This document shows, one piece after another, positions 33,084 to 44,353 of a stretch of 64,000 bases of DNA. A program made the translations under genes and the position numbers. The stretch is from contig JAPVWO010000059.1 in assembly GCA_027493375.1 (NCBI GenBank), positions 6,507 to 70,506 on the forward strand, read 5' to 3'. Numbering within the stretch: the first letter of the stretch is position 1; every line of letters begins with the position of its first letter. The notes below the pieces were generated by a model that saw only the letters and a program-made list of their open reading frames with translations, searched no databases and was not told the DNA's origin. The stretch comes from Candidatus Multivorans thiocomprendens. Lineage in GTDB: Bacteria > Acidobacteriota > Thermoanaerobaculia > Multivoradales > Multivoraceae.

Positions 33084-33954
33084 GAGCGGCGACGCCGGGC
33101 GGAGGCGCCACGATGCCGGGCGGGATGCCTGGCCGTTCGAAGGCGGCGAGGCTTCGCCGCGGGCGGCCGAGATGCTCGCGCGGAGGATCGAGGACGACCT
33201 GAGGCGGCGCGGCCCGGTGCTGGTCGCCTTCTCGGGCGGGGTCGACTCCGGGCTGGTGGCGGCCCTGGCCCAGCGCGTCCTGGGCGACCGGGCGCTGGCG
33301 GTGACGGCGGCGGCCGAGACCCTCGCCGGCTCGGAACTCGATCACGCGCGCAGGCTGGCGGCCGAGATCGGCATCCGCCATCAGGTGACCACCTACAGCG
33401 AACTGGACGAGCCCGAGTTCCGGGCCAACCCCCGTCACCGTTGCTACGTGTGCCAGGGCCTGCGCATGGACCGCATGGTGGAACTGGCGGATTCCGGGGG
33501 CTTCGCCACCGTCTGCGACGGCACGAACGCCTCGGATCCGGGCCCGGACCGTCCGGGCCTGCGGGCCGTGCGCGAGCGAGGGGTCTACAGCCCGTTGCTG
33601 GAGCACGGCGTGACGAAGGCGGATGCCCGCGGGCTGGCGCGGGCGCTTGGTCTCACGGTCTGGGACCGGCCGGCGAATGCCTGCCTGTCTTCGCGGATAC
33701 CTCACGGCCAGCTCGTCACGCTGCCCAAGCTCCGGCGCATCGAGGACGCCGAGGCGGAACTCCAGGGCCGCGGCTTCCGCGTCCTGAGAGTTCGTCACGA
33801 CGGCGACTCGGCGCGGGTCGAGGTGGGGAAGGGCGAACTGCCGGCAGCCGAGAGGCAGTGGAGCGAGATCGAGGCGCGTCTGCTCGAGCTCGGTTTCGAG
33901 GGAGCGGCGCTCGACCGGCGCGGCTATCGAACCGGCGGCGCGGACGCTGCCTGA
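33076..33954 (+). CDS. larE: PP-loop ATP pyrophosphatase, LarE-like (nickel-pincer cofactor sulfur insertion)
   Basis: AFSGGVDSGLVAALA PP-loop; TIGR00268-like layout. Confidence 0.65.
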   Translation: MTRSGDAGRRRHDAGRDAWPFEGGEASPRAAEMLARRIEDDLRRRGPVLVAFSGGVDSGLVAALAQRVLGDRALAVTAAAETLAGSELDHARRLAAEIGIRHQVTTYSELDEPEFRANPRHRCYVCQGLRMDRMVELADSGGFATVCDGTNASDPGPDRPGLRAVRERGVYSPLLEHGVTKADARGLARALGLTVWDRPANACLSSRIPHGQLVTLPKLRRIEDAEAELQGRGFRVLRVRHDGDSARVEVGKGELPAAERQWSEIEARLLELGFEGAALDRRGYRTGGADAA

Positions 33955-33966
33955 TCCGGCGTCTCA

Positions 33967-34725
33967 ATGAAACGGGAGCGACTCCTCGAGCTGCTGCGGG
34001 CCGTAGCCGCCGGCGAAGTCTCCCCAGAGGCCGCGCACGAACGCGTGGCGCGTTTGCCCTACCTGGACGTGGGCGCCGCCAGGCTCGATCTCGATCGGGA
34101 ACTCCGGACCGGCCTGCCCGAGGTCGTCTTCGCTCAGGGCAAGAGCGACGACGAGCTGGTTCGGATCGTTGAAGCGATGATGGCGGACGCGGGCCGGGTG
34201 CTGGTCACGCGGGTGGCGCCGGCTGCCGGCGAACTTCTGAGCGCGGCGATTGCCGGCGGCCGCTTCGAGCCCCGGGCGGGGGTGTGGAGCGCCGGCCGCC
34301 TGGGGCCGCCGTCCGGGCGAAGGGTCGCCGTGCTGAGCGCCGGAACGTCGGACTTTCCGGTGGCGGAGGAGGCCGCGTCGTGTACCGAATGGCTGGGGCA
34401 CGAAGTCGAGCGGATCCGGGATGTCGGCGTCGCCGGCATCCAGCGCGCGCTCGACTCGATCGATCCCCTCCGCCGGGCCGATGTGGCCGTCGTCGTGGCG
34501 GGAATGGACGGCGCCCTGCCGACGGTGGTCGCCGGCCTGGTGTCCTGTCCGGTCGTCGCGGTGCCGACCAGCGTCGGCTACGGCGCGAGCTTCGAGGGGC
34601 TCGCGCCGTTGCTGACCATGCTGACGGCCTGCGCCCCGGGCATCGCCGTCGTCAACATCGACAACGGGTTCGGCGCGGCGGCGCTGACTCACCGCATTCT
34701 GTCGACCAGCATCGCGTCGCCGTAG
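33967..34725 (+). CDS. larB: PurE-like pyridinium-3,5-biscarboxylic acid mononucleotide synthase, LarB-like
   Basis: VAVLSAGTSDFPVAEEA...DVGVAG...AVPTSVGYG PurE-like core with an N-terminal extension. Confidence 0.65.
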   Translation: MKRERLLELLRAVAAGEVSPEAAHERVARLPYLDVGAARLDLDRELRTGLPEVVFAQGKSDDELVRIVEAMMADAGRVLVTRVAPAAGELLSAAIAGGRFEPRAGVWSAGRLGPPSGRRVAVLSAGTSDFPVAEEAASCTEWLGHEVERIRDVGVAGIQRALDSIDPLRRADVAVVVAGMDGALPTVVAGLVSCPVVAVPTSVGYGASFEGLAPLLTMLTACAPGIAVVNIDNGFGAAALTHRILSTSIASP

Positions 34726-37732: not shown

Positions 37733-39334
37733 TCAACGCCACGCCCACTCCTGGAGGTTCGCCAGGGGGCTCAGGGCGTTCGGCGCCACGGATTCGAGTT
37801 CAACGTCGAACGCGGCCAGGCTCAGCGGTTCCCACAGCACCAGCATCGGCTGGTCGTCGTGCAGGATGCGCTGCAGCCGGTGGAGGTCTTCCAGGCCGGC
37901 CGAGGGGTCGGGCCGGACGGCGAAGCTGTCGAGCAGCCGATCGACTTCGGGGTTGGCGTACGCGGCGTAGTTGTCGCCGCCGGGGATCGATTGGCTGTGG
38001 AAGGCGTAACGGAGGTCGAGACTGGTGTCGATCGCGAAGGCGGAGGCCGCGGCGTCGAAGTCCTTGTCGCGCATCCGCTGAATCAGGGCGCCGGATTCGA
38101 CGCGGCGGGGCCGGGCGTCGATGCCGACCGCGCGGAGGTCGGCCTGAATCATCTGCATCGCGTCCCAACGGGCGGGGGCGCCGGCGAAGGTCGCCAGCTC
38201 GAACCGGAACGGCACGCCGTCGCGGTCGAGGATGCCGTCGCCGTCGCCGTCGGTCCAGCCGGCGGCGGCGAGCGCGTCGCGGGCGGCCGGCGGGTCGTGG
38301 GGCCAGGGTTCGAGCGCGGCGTCGTGCGCCCAGACGCTCGAGATGACGGGACTGCTGCCGACTTCGGCGTTGCCGTGCAAGATGGTGGCCACCATTGCCT
38401 CCCGGTCGATCGCCATGGCTAGGGCGCGGCGGGTTTGAGCGTCCTGGAACCAGGGCTTTCGGGTGTTCCACGACACGAAGGTGAACTGGCGGTTGGGGTA
38501 GGCGATCAGGCGGAGGCCGGGCCGATTCGCAATCCGCTGCGCGTCGGTTGCGCCGAGCCCGCTGACGACGTCGACTTCACCCGAGAGCAGCAGGTTCGTC
38601 AGCGCGGCGCTGTCGGTCGCCGAACGCAGGATGATGCGCTCGAGGCGCGGGAGACCGTCCTCGAAGTAGTTCGGGTTGCGGCTCAGCACGAGTTCCTGGC
38701 CGGGCGTCCGGTTCTCCAGCAGGAAGGGGCCGCTGGTGACCAGGTTCTCGAAGAACCAGCCGGGGTCGCCGCGCCACTCGGCGAAGGGCCGCTGCTCCCA
38801 GGCGTGCTTCGGGAGGATGAGTCCGGTCGAGACGTCCGCCAGCACGGTGGGCAGGGCGGCGTCGAGGTGGAAGCGCACCGTTCCGGCGTCGATCACCTCG
38901 ACGTCGGCGATCGACTCCTTGGAGAACGAGTAGTCCCAGGCGACGTTCGCGTCGGTCTGAGCGAGCCAGCTAAACCGGACATCCTCGGCCGTCACCGGTT
39001 CGCCGTCGCTCCATAGCGCGTCCTGACGCAGCCGCACGGTGAGTTGCAGGCGATCCTCGGAGAACTCCCAGTCGGCCGCCAGAGCGGGCGCCCAGGTCGG
39101 CGGACCGTCGCGGAAGTCCGGTCGTTCCGCCATCAGCGGCAGGAAGAACTGGTTGCCGATCGCGCCGTACGAGAGTGTCGCGGGTCCGATCAGCTCGTTC
39201 GGCGTCGGATACTCGAAGCGCATGCCGACGGTGAGGCGCGTCGTGTCCCGCGGGATGTCGGAAGCGCAGCCCCAACCGAGCATGGCAGCCAGTCCGGCCG
39301 CCGCCAGGAGCCGCGTCGCAACCACGGGAATCAT
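37733..39334 (-). CDS. ABC transporter substrate-binding protein, family 5 (peptide/nickel)
   Basis: 533 aa, signal peptide, SBP_bac_5-like. Confidence 0.85.
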   Translation of the reverse strand: MIPVVATRLLAAAGLAAMLGWGCASDIPRDTTRLTVGMRFEYPTPNELIGPATLSYGAIGNQFFLPLMAERPDFRDGPPTWAPALAADWEFSEDRLQLTVRLRQDALWSDGEPVTAEDVRFSWLAQTDANVAWDYSFSKESIADVEVIDAGTVRFHLDAALPTVLADVSTGLILPKHAWEQRPFAEWRGDPGWFFENLVTSGPFLLENRTPGQELVLSRNPNYFEDGLPRLERIILRSATDSAALTNLLLSGEVDVVSGLGATDAQRIANRPGLRLIAYPNRQFTFVSWNTRKPWFQDAQTRRALAMAIDREAMVATILHGNAEVGSSPVISSVWAHDAALEPWPHDPPAARDALAAAGWTDGDGDGILDRDGVPFRFELATFAGAPARWDAMQMIQADLRAVGIDARPRRVESGALIQRMRDKDFDAAASAFAIDTSLDLRYAFHSQSIPGGDNYAAYANPEVDRLLDSFAVRPDPSAGLEDLHRLQRILHDDQPMLVLWEPLSLAAFDVELESVAPNALSPLANLQEWAWR

Positions 39335-39351
39335 CGTACACCGCGGCTGTC

Positions 39352-40704
39352 TTGTACCGTTCGAGCGTGTGGGACTGGATCGGCAGGGACGGAGGTCAAC
39401 GGCGCCGGCGCGCCTGGGCGGCGGTCCTCGGCGCCTTCGTTCTCGCCGACCTCGCCCTGTTCGGCTGGCTGATTTTCCGGTCGCTGTCCGAGCGGGAGCT
39501 GAACCGGATCGTGATCGAGGCCCGGACGGAGGCGGAGGACCTCGCCGAGCGTATCGCGGGCCGGGTGGAGAGCACCGGTCGCGACCTGTACACGGCGATG
39601 GCGACCGAATCGGAGACGCGCAGCTACATCGATTCCGTGCTGGTGCAGCGCGACATCGTCGAGACCGTCGAGGTCTTCGACAGCGAGGGTCACCTGGTGT
39701 TCCGCAATCGCCGGGACGAAACCCGCACCGACGTCGGAAGCCCGCCGAACCTGGAGTCGCCGTCGCTGGTCGCGGAGACGGTGACCAACCAGGTGCCCTA
39801 CGAGATCGTGACGGTACCGGTCGGCACGGTAGGCACCTTCCAGATCGGGATCTCGCGCAGCGAGCTGCAGCAGAGGCTCGTGGCCCTGCGCCGTGAGTTG
39901 CTGCGCCAGACCGCGATCGTCGCGGTGTTGACCGTCGCGCTGTTCGTGGCCGGCTACCTGCTCTACAGCCGCCTTTCGAGGCGGACCGCCCTGGTCGAGC
40001 GGCAGGCGCAGGAGGCGGAACAGATGGCCTACGTCGGCACCCTCGCTTCCGGCCTCGCGCACGAGATCCGCAGTCCCCTGAACTCGTTGAACCTGAACAT
40101 GCAGATGCTCCAGGAAGAGATGCCGGCGGGCTCCTCGGAGCGTCTGGTCGCGATCACGCGTTCGGAAGTCGGTCGCCTGGAACGCCTCGTGTCCGACTTC
40201 CTGAGCTATGCGCGTCCGGAGGAGCTGAAGCTCGAGCAGACGACTGCGTCCGAACTCCTGGGCCACGGCGCCGAGGTGGTGGCCGGCAAGCTCCGGTCCG
40301 CCGGCATCCCCGTGGAGATCGGCGACCGCAGCGGCGGCGTTCCCTTTCAGGTCGATCGAGAGCAGATGAACCAGTTGCTGCTGAACCTGATCGACAATGC
40401 GGTGGCGGCGATGAGCGACTGCGACCGTCCCGTTCTCCGCCTCGAAGCGGAAGCCCGGCCGGGATCGGTCGTGCTCGCGGTCGGCGACAACGGGCCGGGC
40501 GTCGCCCCCGCGGACCGGGAGAGGGTGTTCGACCTGTTCCACTCGGGACGTCGCGGCGGCACCGGCCTGGGACTCGCGATCGTCCGCCGCATCGCCGCCA
40601 CCCACGGCGGGCAAGCGCGGGTGCGGCAGGACGGGAGCGCCGGCGCCACCTTCGAGGTCGAGTTGCCGCTGTCGCCCCGTCGGTTGCGGGGCGATCATGG
40701 CTGA
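39352..40704 (+). CDS. Sensor histidine kinase (orphan; no adjacent response regulator)
   Basis: Two transmembrane segments, H-box LAHEIRSPLNSL, HATPase GTGLGLAIV. Confidence 0.85.
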   Translation: MYRSSVWDWIGRDGGQRRRRAWAAVLGAFVLADLALFGWLIFRSLSERELNRIVIEARTEAEDLAERIAGRVESTGRDLYTAMATESETRSYIDSVLVQRDIVETVEVFDSEGHLVFRNRRDETRTDVGSPPNLESPSLVAETVTNQVPYEIVTVPVGTVGTFQIGISRSELQQRLVALRRELLRQTAIVAVLTVALFVAGYLLYSRLSRRTALVERQAQEAEQMAYVGTLASGLAHEIRSPLNSLNLNMQMLQEEMPAGSSERLVAITRSEVGRLERLVSDFLSYARPEELKLEQTTASELLGHGAEVVAGKLRSAGIPVEIGDRSGGVPFQVDREQMNQLLLNLIDNAVAAMSDCDRPVLRLEAEARPGSVVLAVGDNGPGVAPADRERVFDLFHSGRRGGTGLGLAIVRRIAATHGGQARVRQDGSAGATFEVELPLSPRRLRGDHG

Positions 40705-43203
40705 CGTTCGATCCTCGGTACGATTCCGAACTGGGAGCGCTGGCTGTAGAGGCTTCCCCATGGTCCTTGTTCGACGTCCACGCCAACCGGGACGATGGGT
40801 ACGGTCAACGTCTCCGGGTCGGCACTCCTTCGGAGCAGCGGCGCGGCGGCGGAACAGGCGCCGGGCCTGCACTGCCGCGGCGGACCGACTTCGTCTCCGG
40901 TGTACAACCTGCCCCTGTTCAGCCAGTACCAGGCGCCGTCTTCCAGGCCGTCCGCTTGCAACTCGCCCGCGATCGGGTCGCCGTCGCCGTCGAAGCAGCC
41001 GGGCAACAGGGAAGCGATGATTCCGCTCTCGTCGGCTTCGAGCGGGTAGCTCCCGGTCCGGCCGTCTTCGCACGTCAGACGGAACGTGGCCGCGTTCCCG
41101 TCCAGCGGCCGGCCAACGACTCCGCCGTGACCCTTCCAGTAGGGCGCGACGTGTTCGCCCCCCCCCTTTCGTGTCGGTGAGGTGCGGGACGATCCCCATG
41201 AATCCGGTCCGATCGTGGGTCATCAGGGTGCCGTGAAGGCGTCCCGCAACGGTCAACACGAAACGGCGGTCGCCCCGGGGGTATGCCGTGATCCCGGCGG
41301 GGACCGGCGGTCTCAACCCTGGATTCAGCGACGATTCGCAGACCAAAGGGGCCAGCGCCACGTTCCTGTCGCCGTTGATCCAGTACCAACCGCCATCTTC
41401 TATGCCCTCGATCGCCAACTCGCCCCAAAGAGGCTGCCCGTCTTGAGCGATGCACGTGGACGGGCGGACGGCGCGCACGATCAGGCCGTCGTCGCCGGCG
41501 TACTCCCTGCTCGAGTACGAAGCGCCGCCGCATCGAAGCCGGAGTACCGCGGATCGCCCGTCGGACGGCCTGGCCGCGAAGCCGCCCGTGCCGCGCCAGT
41601 ACGGGGCGACCCGCGACTCGCACGCGGGCGGTTCCGGTGGCGGGTCGGGGTCCGGTTGCGGCGGCGGGTCGGGATCCGGTAGCGGCGGCGGAGTGTCGCG
41701 AATCGTGCCTTCGGCGGTCAAGCGCAGGGCCAGAACGGCCCGACCCCGCGGGACCGCGACGCGTACGGTGAACTCCTCTTCGTCCTCGACGAGGTCGTCG
41801 GTGAAGGCGGCCACGCGGATCTCGGCCGTTGCCGCCGTCTTCGCGGCGCCGATCGCCGGAACCGTCACGCTGCCCGTCGCGGCGGCGTAGTCGGCGCTCG
41901 TGGCCGTGCCGTTCGCGGTCCGAAAGCTCAGAGTCAGACTTTCGCCCCCGCGCACCGGCCAGGTCGAGTGCGCCACGCCGAAGCTCAGGAACGTCCCTTC
42001 CGGACCTTCGGCGTCCGCGAGGCGAAGGCAGGAGTACACGGTCAGCAGATTCCCCGTCCTCCGCGTCTCCAGCGCCGTCGGCAGGGTCGCCGAGGCGGCC
42101 AGGTCGTTCCCGCACAGGGAAAGCTCTCGAAGGGCGGTCAAGTCGTCCAACTGGGGCGAGACACCGCCGGTGAGGCGGTTCCAGGCGAGGTCGAGATACC
42201 GGAGGTTCGCGAGCGCGCTCAGGTCGGGTATCTCCCCGGTCAGGCTGTTGCGATGCAGCCAGAGCGTCCTGAGGCTGGTGAGCTTGCTCGGGTCCGGGAT
42301 GTTCCCCGTCAGTTCGTTGTCGGAGAGCACCAGTGACTGGAGGTTCGCGAGCGCGCTCAGGTCGGGTATCTCCCCGGTCAGGCTGTTGCGATGCAGCCAG
42401 AGTGTCCTGAGGCTGGTGAGCTTGCTCAGGTCCGGGATGTTCCCCGTCAGTTCGTTGTCGGAGAGCCTGAGCGTCCTGAGGCTGGTGAGCTTGCTCAGGT
42501 CCGGGATGCTTCCGGTCAGTTCGTTGTCGTCGAGCGCGAGTGTTCGGAGGCCGGCGAGCTTGCTCAGGTCCGGGATGTTCCCCGTCAAGTCGTTGTCGGA
42601 GAGCACGAGTGTTTGGAGGCCGGCGAGCTTGCTCAGGTCTGGGATGCTCCCGCTCAACCGGTTTTCGGTGAGATTGAGACTCTCGAGGTTGGCCAGTTCG
42701 CTCAGGTCGGGGATGCTCCCCGTCAAGTCGTTGCCTGCGAGATCGAGTTCCTGGAGGTTCGGAGGGAAGTGCGCGGCGACGATGCTCCCGCTCAGTTCGC
42801 TGGCGTGCAGCGTGAGGGACGAGAGGCTGGCGAGAGCGCTCAGGTCCGGGATGGTTCCGCCGGACAGGCCTTTCCTCCGCAGAGTCAGGCCGGCGACGCG
42901 GTTCTTGTTCGAAGCCAGGGCGATCCCGTCCCAGGAAGCGATGCTCAGCGTGTTCGTCCAGTTCAGGGCGCCCGTGCCCCGGAGTGTGTCCATGACGTTC
43001 AGCAAGGCGGCGCAGTCGCCGGCCAGCGCGACCGCGTCGCCTGGATTGACCGCGATGACGGCCGTGTCGCTGGCCGTGCAGGTCGCCTGCGCCGAAGCGG
43101 CGTTCGGCCAAACGGTCACCGTCAAGAGCGACCAAGCGGCGACGGTGAACCGGATCCGCAAGGCCCGCTCCCGTGGTCGGCGGATGTTCCTCTTGCTCGT
43201 CAA
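40695..43203 (-). CDS. Secreted leucine-rich-repeat protein (plant-type 24-residue LRRs) with a Calx-beta-like domain, a Pro/Asp linker and two tandem C-terminal repeat domains; the frame is interrupted at a G9 tract (41158-41166)
   Basis: TTG start, signal peptide ...AASAQA, about 12 LRRs LTGxIPDLSxLxxLxxLxLxxNx, PPPLPDPDPPPQPDPDPPPEPP linker, GWYW(I/L)N repeated twice; removing one G joins the 43203-frame and the 41006-frame into one ORF. Confidence 0.7.
41158..41166. repeat. Homopolymeric C9/G9 tract inside the LRR-protein coding sequence
   Basis: Read directly from the sequence; it lies exactly at the frame break. Confidence 0.9.
42200..42760. repeat. Near-identical tandem DNA repeats (about 138-nt unit, about 4 copies) encoding the LRR units
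   Basis: GAGGTTCGCGAGCGCGCTCAGGTCGGGTATCTCCCCGGTCAGGCTGTTGCGATGCAGCCAGAG... recurs nearly verbatim. Confidence 0.8.
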
Positions 43204-43342
43204 CTTGACGTTGGCGGGGCAATGGCGACGCTACTACATGGCCAGTGGCGTGTGCCGCTCGAGGTTGGGCCGGCGACCCTGTCGCGGCGCCAACCTTGTC
43301 ACGTCTTGTAGTGGCTCAGTACATATGAGACTCGGAGGTCCT

Positions 43343-43500
43343 TCAAGCCGCCGTGTTGTTTGGATACTGCCACGGCGTGAGTCCTCCGAGTGCCTGGTGC
43401 GGTCTTTGCCGCTTGTAGTGGTGGTTGAAGTCGTCGAGGCAGCGGTTGAGGGATTCGATCCGATGGGGCGGTTGGCAGGAGCCGTAGAACTCGTGTCGGT
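43343..43500 (-). mobile_element. IS transposase C-terminal remnant (rve/DDE integrase-core tail), pseudogene
   Basis: ...YRHEFYGSCQPPHRIESLNRCLDDFNHHYKRQRPHQALGGLTPWQY* matches IS3/IS481 C-termini; only about 50 aa is interpretable and the local GC is lower. Confidence 0.45.
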
Positions 43501-44023
43501 AGGTGGCCTGCGCCAACGGTCGACATGCTCTTGTGCTGGAACGTCGCGATACGGAAGAAGGTGAGAGCGTGATGGGTGCCAGGCGGTTGGGCTTGGCGCC
43601 CCTGCCGGTGCTGCCGCCGGTTGAGGCGGTGCCAGGCGGGACTGAGGAACCGCGGGACGTGAATAGGGAGATCGGACAGTAGGGAGAGTCGAGGTGATCC
43701 GGAAGGAACGCACCTGAACCCGACAGAAGGCTGCGTCCTCGCGGAACGTGATCCTCGGAACGGAGGCGACCGCCATCGCGGCCGGGGCGACCCGGACCGA
43801 CTCGGAGTTGCCGGCGCAAGTGGAGGGCGCGCACCCGCGCTCTCGCCCACCGGCGCTGCCGCGAGCCGCTACACACCATTGACCGTTTCGTCCGGCGGAT
43901 GCTACTGTCTGCCGCCGAAATGCCGCTGCGGCGGCGTAGAGCGGGTGCCGGACTCGTCCTTCGGCAACGCCAGATGACGACAACCGGCGCACGGAGCGAT
44001 CGGCGCGCCGCTGAGAGAGAACG

Positions 44024-44353
44024 ATGTACGCAGTGATAGAGACCGGCGGCAAGCAGGTCCGGGTCGAAGAAGGCGATGTCGTCGACCTGGAGCGCCTCGG
44101 CGGCGCCGAGGCCGGTTCGGAGGTGGTCTTCGACCGGGTGCTGATGATCGGTGGCGGCGAGGACGAGCCCGAAGTGGGCGAGCCGGTCGTCGAGGGCGCC
44201 AGGGTGCGGGCACAGCTCGTGAGCGACCTGCGCGGCCCGAAGATCGTCGTGTTCAAGTTCAAGCGCCGGAAGGGCTACCGCCGCCGCCGCGGACACCGGC
44301 AGGAGCTGCAGCGCTTCCGGATAGAAGCGATCGAACGAGACGGCGGGGCGTAA
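44024..44353 (+). CDS. rplU: 50S ribosomal protein L21
   Basis: [21 protein letters not shown]-terminus. Confidence 0.95.

Follow-up and report, generated by a model that had tools for sequence, protein, structure and literature searches.

Introduction

Slipped-strand mispairing at poly-G/C tracts underlies phase variation in Bordetella (PMC1891110), Mycobacterium (PMC10334774), Neisseria (PMC3786947) and Campylobacter (PMC8355987). Homopolymeric tracts in Bordetella are polymorphic among strains and within cultures (PMC1891110), and a neutral 7G tract in mycobacteria frameshifts ~100 times faster than substitution proceeds (PMC10334774). Here we describe a tract of nine G residues (G9) in the gene for a probably secreted leucine-rich repeat (LRR) protein of Candidatus Multivorans thiocomprendens, an uncultivated member of the Acidobacteriota. 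The DNA analyzed (herein the window) comprises 64,000 nt of contig JAPVWO010000059.1 (assembly GCA_027493375.1, positions 6,507 to 70,506 of the forward strand); coordinates are those of the window unless another contig is named. A preliminary description of this DNA placed the break in the LRR reading frame exactly between two C-terminal repeats, and offered two explanations: a homopolymer sequencing error, or slipped-strand phase variation of a surface protein. Comparison of 16 assemblies of the organism reveals tract lengths from G7 to G10, and we propose, at a probability of roughly 0.55, that the tract is a contingency-type (phase-variation type) switch acting on a host- or surface-interaction protein.

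The locus resembles tcfA, bapC and the fimX promoter of Bordetella pertussis (PMC1891110) in having a G/C homopolymer in the open reading frame (ORF) of a secreted or surface protein, where single-base length differences shift the frame, and in lying in a GC-rich genome that otherwise avoids long runs. In Bordetella, however, within-culture polymorphism is tied to transcript levels, whereas the differences described here are between assembly consensus sequences, in an uncultivated member of the Acidobacteriota that is not a pathogen. The Mycobacterium tuberculosis complex (glpK 7C/7G; PMC10334774) also provides short G/C tracts of 7 to 9 nt with recurrent frameshifts inferred from near-identical genomes, and slippage about two orders of magnitude above substitution; its frameshifts are homoplastic (PMC10334774). 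That study combined experiments and neutral simulations with data from 31,428 isolates; the present comparison covers 16 assemblies. Neisseria hmbR/hpuA (PMC3786947) and the G-tracts of Campylobacter (PMC8355987) share with the present locus an intragenic poly-G run of 8 to 11, ON/OFF frames and host-interaction surface targets. Most of their tracts, however, are near the start of the gene, and they cause true ON/OFF switching at high rates that have been measured; in the present locus the C-terminal module alone is affected. Given the late position of the tract, "C-terminal sequence switching" in Helicobacter canadensis (PMC2823697) offers a closer likeness.

The eukaryote-like LRR proteins of sponge-associated bacteria (PMC5845141, PMC6306507) are comparable in another respect, being secreted, LRR-rich and encoded by accessory, copy-number-variable genes. 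We know of no account of frame switching by a homopolymer in these proteins; of the 15 papers listed by a single full-text search for phase variation together with "sponge symbiont", none contained the latter term. The mechanism, intragenic poly-G slippage, is already known; what is new is the host (an uncultivated member of the Acidobacteriota), the target (a eukaryote-like LRR protein) and a late tract at a domain junction that changes a C-terminal module and not the whole protein. The organism is probably associated with a sponge host, going by the sponge-related names of metagenome-assembled genomes (MAGs) of its relatives.

Results

The Poly-G Tract Lies at the Junction of Two C-Terminal Repeats

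Read directly from the DNA, the tract occupies 41158..41166 of the minus strand (C9 on the plus strand), where the surrounding codons are ...CAC CTC ACC GAC ACG AAA GGGGGGGGG CGA ACA CGT.... It encodes a Gly run (...TDTK-GGG-EHVAPYW...) at the junction of two C-terminal repeats of ~145 residues each, both delimited by homology. Repeat 1 (CESRVAPYWRGTGGF...DGGWYWINGD...HLTDTK; 41167..41622, minus strand) is in the frame of the gene; repeat 2 with its stop codon (EHVAPYWKGHGG...DGAWYWLN...GIVPRIERQP*; 40695..41157, minus strand) is out of frame in the window. Translation with one G removed yields an ORF of 835 residues from TTG 43203 (40695..43203, minus strand), or of 821 residues from TTG 43161, which terminates at TGA 40695. 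In this G8 frame the tract is followed by another copy of the domain that comes before it (43% identity over 81 residues, E = 1e-21). Both points had been anticipated in the preliminary description, as had the stop-free stretch of more than 1.8 kb in the G9 frame, and its coordinates and stated consequences all proved correct. The latter measures 1827 nt (39331..41157, minus strand) and translates into Arg-rich nonsense antisense to a histidine kinase gene, so that the G9 ORF extends from 43203 to 39331 (1290 residues).

The G7 and G10 frames, at 708 or 709 residues from TTG 43203, stop at 41075 after a tail of 27 to 28 residues. Repeat 2 is thus in frame with G8 (or G11) only, and the junction peptide TDTKGGGEHVAPYWK would mark the full-length, G8-frame product across the tract. 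Because the tract lies 81% along the gene, the signal peptide, LRRs, Calx-beta domain and repeat 1 can be translated from every allele; repeat 2 is predicted to be missing from the G7 and G10 products and replaced in the G9 product by a long nonsense extension (>600 codons).

No other homopolymer in the 64-kb window is longer than six. The G+C content is 68.7%, yet homopolymers are avoided: there are 338 G/C runs of length 4, 69 of length 5, 11 of length 6, none of length 7 or 8 and one of length 9. Run counts drop ~5-fold for each added base, giving an expectation per 64 kb of ~0.1 run of at least 9 and ~0.5 run of at least 8. For the window the tract is exceptional, but a genome of several megabases should contain a G8 somewhere, and the existence of the tract is therefore by itself no evidence for selection.

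Tract Length Varies among Conspecific Assemblies

Conspecific assemblies were identified by exact look-up of the neighboring substrate-binding protein and histidine kinase, and two further ones via members of the protein cluster of the orthologue. Since gene callers put the G9 contigs in a wrong frame that ends at 41075, tract lengths were taken from the assembly consensus DNA and never from gene calls. Among 16 assemblies, the window included, two have G7, eight G8, five G9 and one G10, with flanks that are 100% identical. G7 is present in GCA_028873735.1 (L030) and ERZ23495468 (L034). G8 is found in GCA_027493435.1 (L032), JGI 3300009934 (L033), a 2.9-Mb contig of ERZ25069580 (L035), GCA_027493315.1 (L036), SRR10406134 (L038), SRR10406098 (L048), JGI 3300009935 (L052) and JGI 3300009939 (L053). 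The window shares G9 with JGI 3300009928 (L037), JGI 3300009925 (L039), SRR10406097 (L045) and SRR22392484 (L046), and G10 occurs in JGI 3300009937 (L031). Look-up of the 103-residue downstream ORF returned one contig, which was already in the set. Two scans of a metagenome-contig collection for the tract, one allowing a gap of variable size and the other using a fixed flank joined to G7, gave no match; the collection is evidently without the locus-bearing JGI contigs. In the short JGI contig L052, the first ~210 nt (1-210) are unrelated sequence joined inside repeat 1, which marks either a chimeric contig or a genuine rearrangement.

The 16 assemblies are 0 to 77 single-nucleotide polymorphisms (SNPs) apart over 13.6 kb. 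All five G9 assemblies belong to one haplotype (0 to 1 SNP apart) that was recovered from different samples by different pipelines, with at least three independent sources (JGI 3300009925 and 3300009928; Logan SRR10406097 and SRR22392484; the window). The two G7 assemblies are 1 SNP apart. G8 is spread over haplotypes up to 68 SNPs apart and includes the 2.9-Mb contig, whose naming is in long-read style; the closest relative of the G10 assembly, 9 SNPs off, also has G8. By parsimony, this distribution implies at least three independent changes in tract length.

Homopolymers are the classic site of indel errors, and in principle G8 could be present everywhere, with G7, G9 and G10 as miscalls. 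G10 does come from a single assembly, and L030 and L034 may share raw reads; an overlap of raw reads is likewise possible between the JGI and SRR10406xxx sets. Against an artifact, the G9 of the window recurs in four further assemblies of its haplotype from different samples, projects and pipelines, and so is not a random error: such error is excluded for G9 and very unlikely for G7. A single JGI sample series, uniformly processed, contains G8, G9 and G10; length correlates with SNP haplotype, unlike random error; and no length change is seen at any other homopolymer in 13.6 kb of 14 assemblies. We regard a sequencing or assembly artifact as highly improbable and the tract-length polymorphism as real with high confidence. 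Of the two explanations first offered, sequencing error is consequently dismissed for G9.

Length Changes Are Specific to the Tract

A MAFFT alignment of 14 loci over 13.6 kb contains 105 SNP columns (0.77%). Apart from the tract, it has no single-base indel and no frameshifting one. Its other indels alter the number of LRR copies (in multiples of 138 nt), change the length of the linker in frame by 24 nt, affect intergenic DNA ((GT)n and 72 nt) or reflect a scaffold gap. All 102 other runs in the same 13.6 kb (84 of length 4, 16 of length 5 and 2 of length 6) are invariant. At 1741 nt, the longest SNP-free stretch of the alignment takes in the tract together with the two repeats and the Calx-beta domain (L035 2909-4650, which corresponds to ~40685-42010 in the window and to LRR units that the window is missing). 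At least three length changes set against zero SNPs in the surrounding 1741 nt show that the tract mutates far faster than bases are substituted; three events relative to 0.77% SNP columns correspond to ~400 times the per-site substitution frequency. All assemblies have the same 473 nt downstream of the tract, a length for which the SNP density of the whole alignment predicts ~3.7 SNP columns, and there are no secondary lesions in the out-of-frame alleles. The flanks of the SNP-free stretch have ~0.8% SNP columns; the stretch itself suggests a recent sweep or recombinational spread among strains.

The Two Repeats Define an Undescribed Domain Family

About 30 homologues, 55 to 67% identical to the restored tandem region over >90% of its length, were found in MAGs of Acidobacteriota/Holophagales, with one each from a Gemmatimonadota and a Bdellovibrionales MAG. 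Both repeats are contiguous in a single ORF in all of them, joined at D-[LM]-E-G-x-G-E-H-V-A-P-Y-W; this places the tract exactly at the inter-repeat junction, in agreement with the position first assigned to the frame break, and identifies the downstream frame as real coding sequence. A scan of species-representative genomes, which gave only paralogues or orthologues of at most 62% identity, was used to compare the runs at this site: in 17 paralogous or orthologous junctions the G run does not exceed G6, and none is frameshifted.

The module is characterized by the motifs APYWxGxGGF, DGLIVR and DGxWYWxNG and a conserved Cys (P0001-P0032, P0050-P0162). An AlphaFold2 model of the tandem module, computed for homologue P0017 from 28 sequences, consists of two all-beta repeats with a predicted local distance difference test score (pLDDT) of 91.4 and a predicted template modeling score (pTM) of 0.89. 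The pTM indicates that the repeats pack as one unit, and loss of repeat 2 should then disable the module; the model thus suggests that the two repeats form one structural unit and that truncation should matter. The module has no Pfam or NCBIfam match. A sequence profile search of the PDB gave nothing below E = 0.69, and there was no significant fold match in the PDB (best Foldseek match, E = 1.7e-3 with a template modeling score below 0.2). It is also rare, with 126 matching cluster representatives among 1.84 billion, and mostly C-terminal, following variable N-terminal domains (LRR, Calx-beta-like repeats, Spondin_N, fn3). The tandem module is a previously undescribed, putatively beta-rich domain family of two repeats. 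A role in anchoring or binding would be a guess. The idea of a strictly C-terminal sorting signal is weakened by family members that carry the module N-terminally or in single copy, and an autotransporter barrel was rejected: the module comprises two soluble-looking beta repeats with a conserved Cys and lacks a terminal aromatic residue.

A Candidate Contingency Locus

Replication slippage is the simplest mechanism for the alleles. During replication, the G run would gain or lose a base by slipped-strand mispairing, giving rise to heritable alleles. G8, being in frame, would yield the complete protein, the C-terminal repeats both included; G7 and G10 would lead to a stop 27 to 28 codons after the tract; and G9, the allele of the window, would lose the second half of the two-repeat module while keeping the signal peptide, LRRs, Calx-beta domain and repeat 1. 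The alleles would interconvert on the time scale of strain divergence. We infer that the out-of-frame alleles have lost or changed their function, and that length changes may be reversible and adaptive. A contingency switch is favored because the in-frame G8 is still the commonest allele (8/16) and the most widely distributed over haplotypes, and because the downstream frame is pristine in every out-of-frame allele.

Several points weigh against a switch. Tract length follows haplotype, all G9 alleles falling in one clade and both G7 alleles in another, so that any switching is slow relative to our sampling. The ~400-fold excess is within the order of magnitude that neutral slippage in a long run of G should produce, and selection need not be invoked; nor is a G8 run improbable genome-wide, at ~0.5 expected per 64 kb. 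With the tract 81% along the gene, "OFF" alleles keep most of the protein. The data are consensus assemblies, some of which may share raw reads, and G10 was seen in one of them. Of the phase variation envisaged in the preliminary description, a heritable, hotspot-specific length polymorphism from G7 to G10 with at least three changes has been substantiated; phase variation in the strict sense, with high-frequency reversible switching in a clonal population and an expression phenotype, is plausible. The constancy of G9 within its haplotype argues against very fast switching.

Much of this would also be expected of a neutral mutational hotspot with incipient pseudogenization, in which a G8 arose by chance from Gly codons and ordinary slippage acts on a dispensable gene with no regulatory or adaptive role. 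G7, G9 and G10 would then be loss-of-function or truncation mutations fixed in some strain lineages. Such an account fits the constancy of length within haplotypes, an event count in line with neutral slippage rates (PMC10334774), the extrapolated frequency of G8 runs and the lack of such a tract in paralogues. It also fits the accessory status of the gene: related strains differ in what separates rplU from the histidine kinase (the slot equivalent to 40695-44024), which is empty in L050 (4473-4586) and occupied in L051 (3-4430) by an autotransporter-like protein of >1475 residues with repeated immunoglobulin-like units and a C-terminal beta-barrel-like region. Just upstream of the LRR gene, the 820 nt that separate it from rplU contain a remnant of the C terminus of an insertion sequence-type transposase/integrase (rve_3; 43343..43480, minus strand; Pfam PF13683, E = 2e-6, 27.9 bits versus a 26.5-bit cutoff), which hints that the LRR gene arrived as, or beside, mobile DNA. 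A neutral hotspot is harder to reconcile with an in-frame allele that remains the most frequent and sits on the most diverse backgrounds, and with the lack of secondary lesions, the 473 nt downstream being free of SNPs. Moreover, three out-of-frame lengths in so shallow a tree would amount to many independent losses of one gene. We hold neutral decay at a hotspot to be a serious contender, if somewhat doubtful.

A perfectly intact downstream frame would equally be retained if G9 were decoded into the full-length protein by programmed recoding, through transcriptional slippage or +1 / -2 ribosomal frameshifting. Long homopolymers do cause RNA polymerase slippage, by which frameshifted genes are partly rescued (PMC1088944, PMC5009743). 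However, the need for a frameshift is not conserved: 8/16 alleles are in frame with G8 while three other lengths coexist, and the paralogues, with at most G6 and a single ORF, are without the tract. Documented bacterial slippage is, besides, mainly on A/T runs (PMC1088944, PMC6260861). No stimulatory element came to notice, no search having been aimed at one. Programmed recoding is therefore very unlikely, although incidental low-level rescue of G9 by slippage may occur. A contingency switch accordingly remains our preferred reading. Its fuller biological version, in which a probable sponge symbiont of the Acidobacteriota uses the tract to switch a secreted LRR protein of eukaryote-like type between full (G8), truncated (G7/G10) and garbled (G9) forms of its C-terminal module, is tentative and, as a whole, rather unlikely.

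The Gene and Its Neighborhood

Translation by the likelier of two start codons, TTG 43161 (MRIRFTVAAW...) in preference to TTG 43203, agrees with orthologue P0036 and opens with a probable Sec signal peptide (MRIRFTVAAWSLLTVTVWPNAASA, with a cleavage motif between ASA and QA; 43090..43161, minus strand), recognized by eye in the translation. Secretion of the protein is probable on the strength of this inspected N terminus (MRIRFTVAAWSLLTVTVWPNAASA followed by QA) and the Pfam LRR matches. The LRRs, of 23 residues each, span 42100..42870 of the minus strand (Pfam LRR_4, 6.4e-35; LRR_1, 3.4e-24; LRR_8, 8.8e-17); in NCBIfam, the protein shows sub-threshold similarity alone, in the LRR region, to LRR proteins of Leptospira, Listeria and Xanthomonas. 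They are followed on the same strand by a Calx-beta-like domain (41695..41943; Pfam PF03160, E = 2.6e-5, 24.6 bits, just under the 27-bit cutoff) and, as read from the translation, a Pro/Asp-rich linker (DTPPPLPDPDPPPQPDPDPPPEPPA; 41623..41697) that leads into repeat 1.

The number of LRR units varies among conspecific assemblies (L030-L039, L053) in steps of 138 nt, or two 23-residue units. Relative to the 967-residue orthologue, the window is shorter by 414 nt (6 units), L039 by 276 nt and L030/L034 by 138 nt; copy number is not constant even inside the G9 haplotype. These differences may represent real recombinational variation or short-read collapse of near-identical repeats. The 24-nt in-frame indel between strains in the linker (~41688) corresponds to one extra PLPDPDPP unit, the short form being that of the window, L036, L037, L039, L045 and L046.

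The LRR gene converges on the histidine kinase gene (HisKA + HATPase_c, Pfam; 39367..40704, plus strand), and the kinase stop and the G8-frame LRR stop overlap by 10 nt (40695-40704). A scan around the LRR gene found no promoter or terminator, and no terminator-like site between the LRR and kinase stops. With overlapping convergent stops and no such site between them, the LRR and kinase transcripts must overlap. A (GT)3 versus (GT)2 dinucleotide indel in L030/L034, located in intergenic DNA on the upstream side of the LRR gene (~43876), is a second, smaller slippage-type polymorphism. Farther away, 39 SNP columns in 500 nt and a 72-nt indel cluster at ~33840-34335 (L035 11000-11499), at the 5' end of an AIRC (purE-like) gene and the adjacent intergenic sequence, marking a locally hypervariable or recombined segment.

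Discussion

Homopolymer frameshifts in MAGs are usually dismissed as errors or pseudogenes; in the present case, public assemblies alone reveal a real, multi-allelic polymorphism. For annotation, the window carries a frameshifted allele of an intact gene, and neither a 1290-residue protein nor two genes. The analysis also flags a rare, confidently foldable and unannotated tandem domain, the integrity of which would be set by the tract if the switch is true.

Were the tract to act as a switch, contingency-locus biology would extend beyond pathogens: it would take in uncultivated Acidobacteriota associated with animals, as well as the LRR proteins of eukaryote-like type that are thought to mediate symbiont-host interaction. 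If the switching of the C-terminal module in a sponge symbiont is also true, it would be the first case found of a phase-variable eukaryote-like protein in a non-pathogenic animal symbiont, and cells within a population would come to differ in the way a host-interaction protein is presented or anchored.

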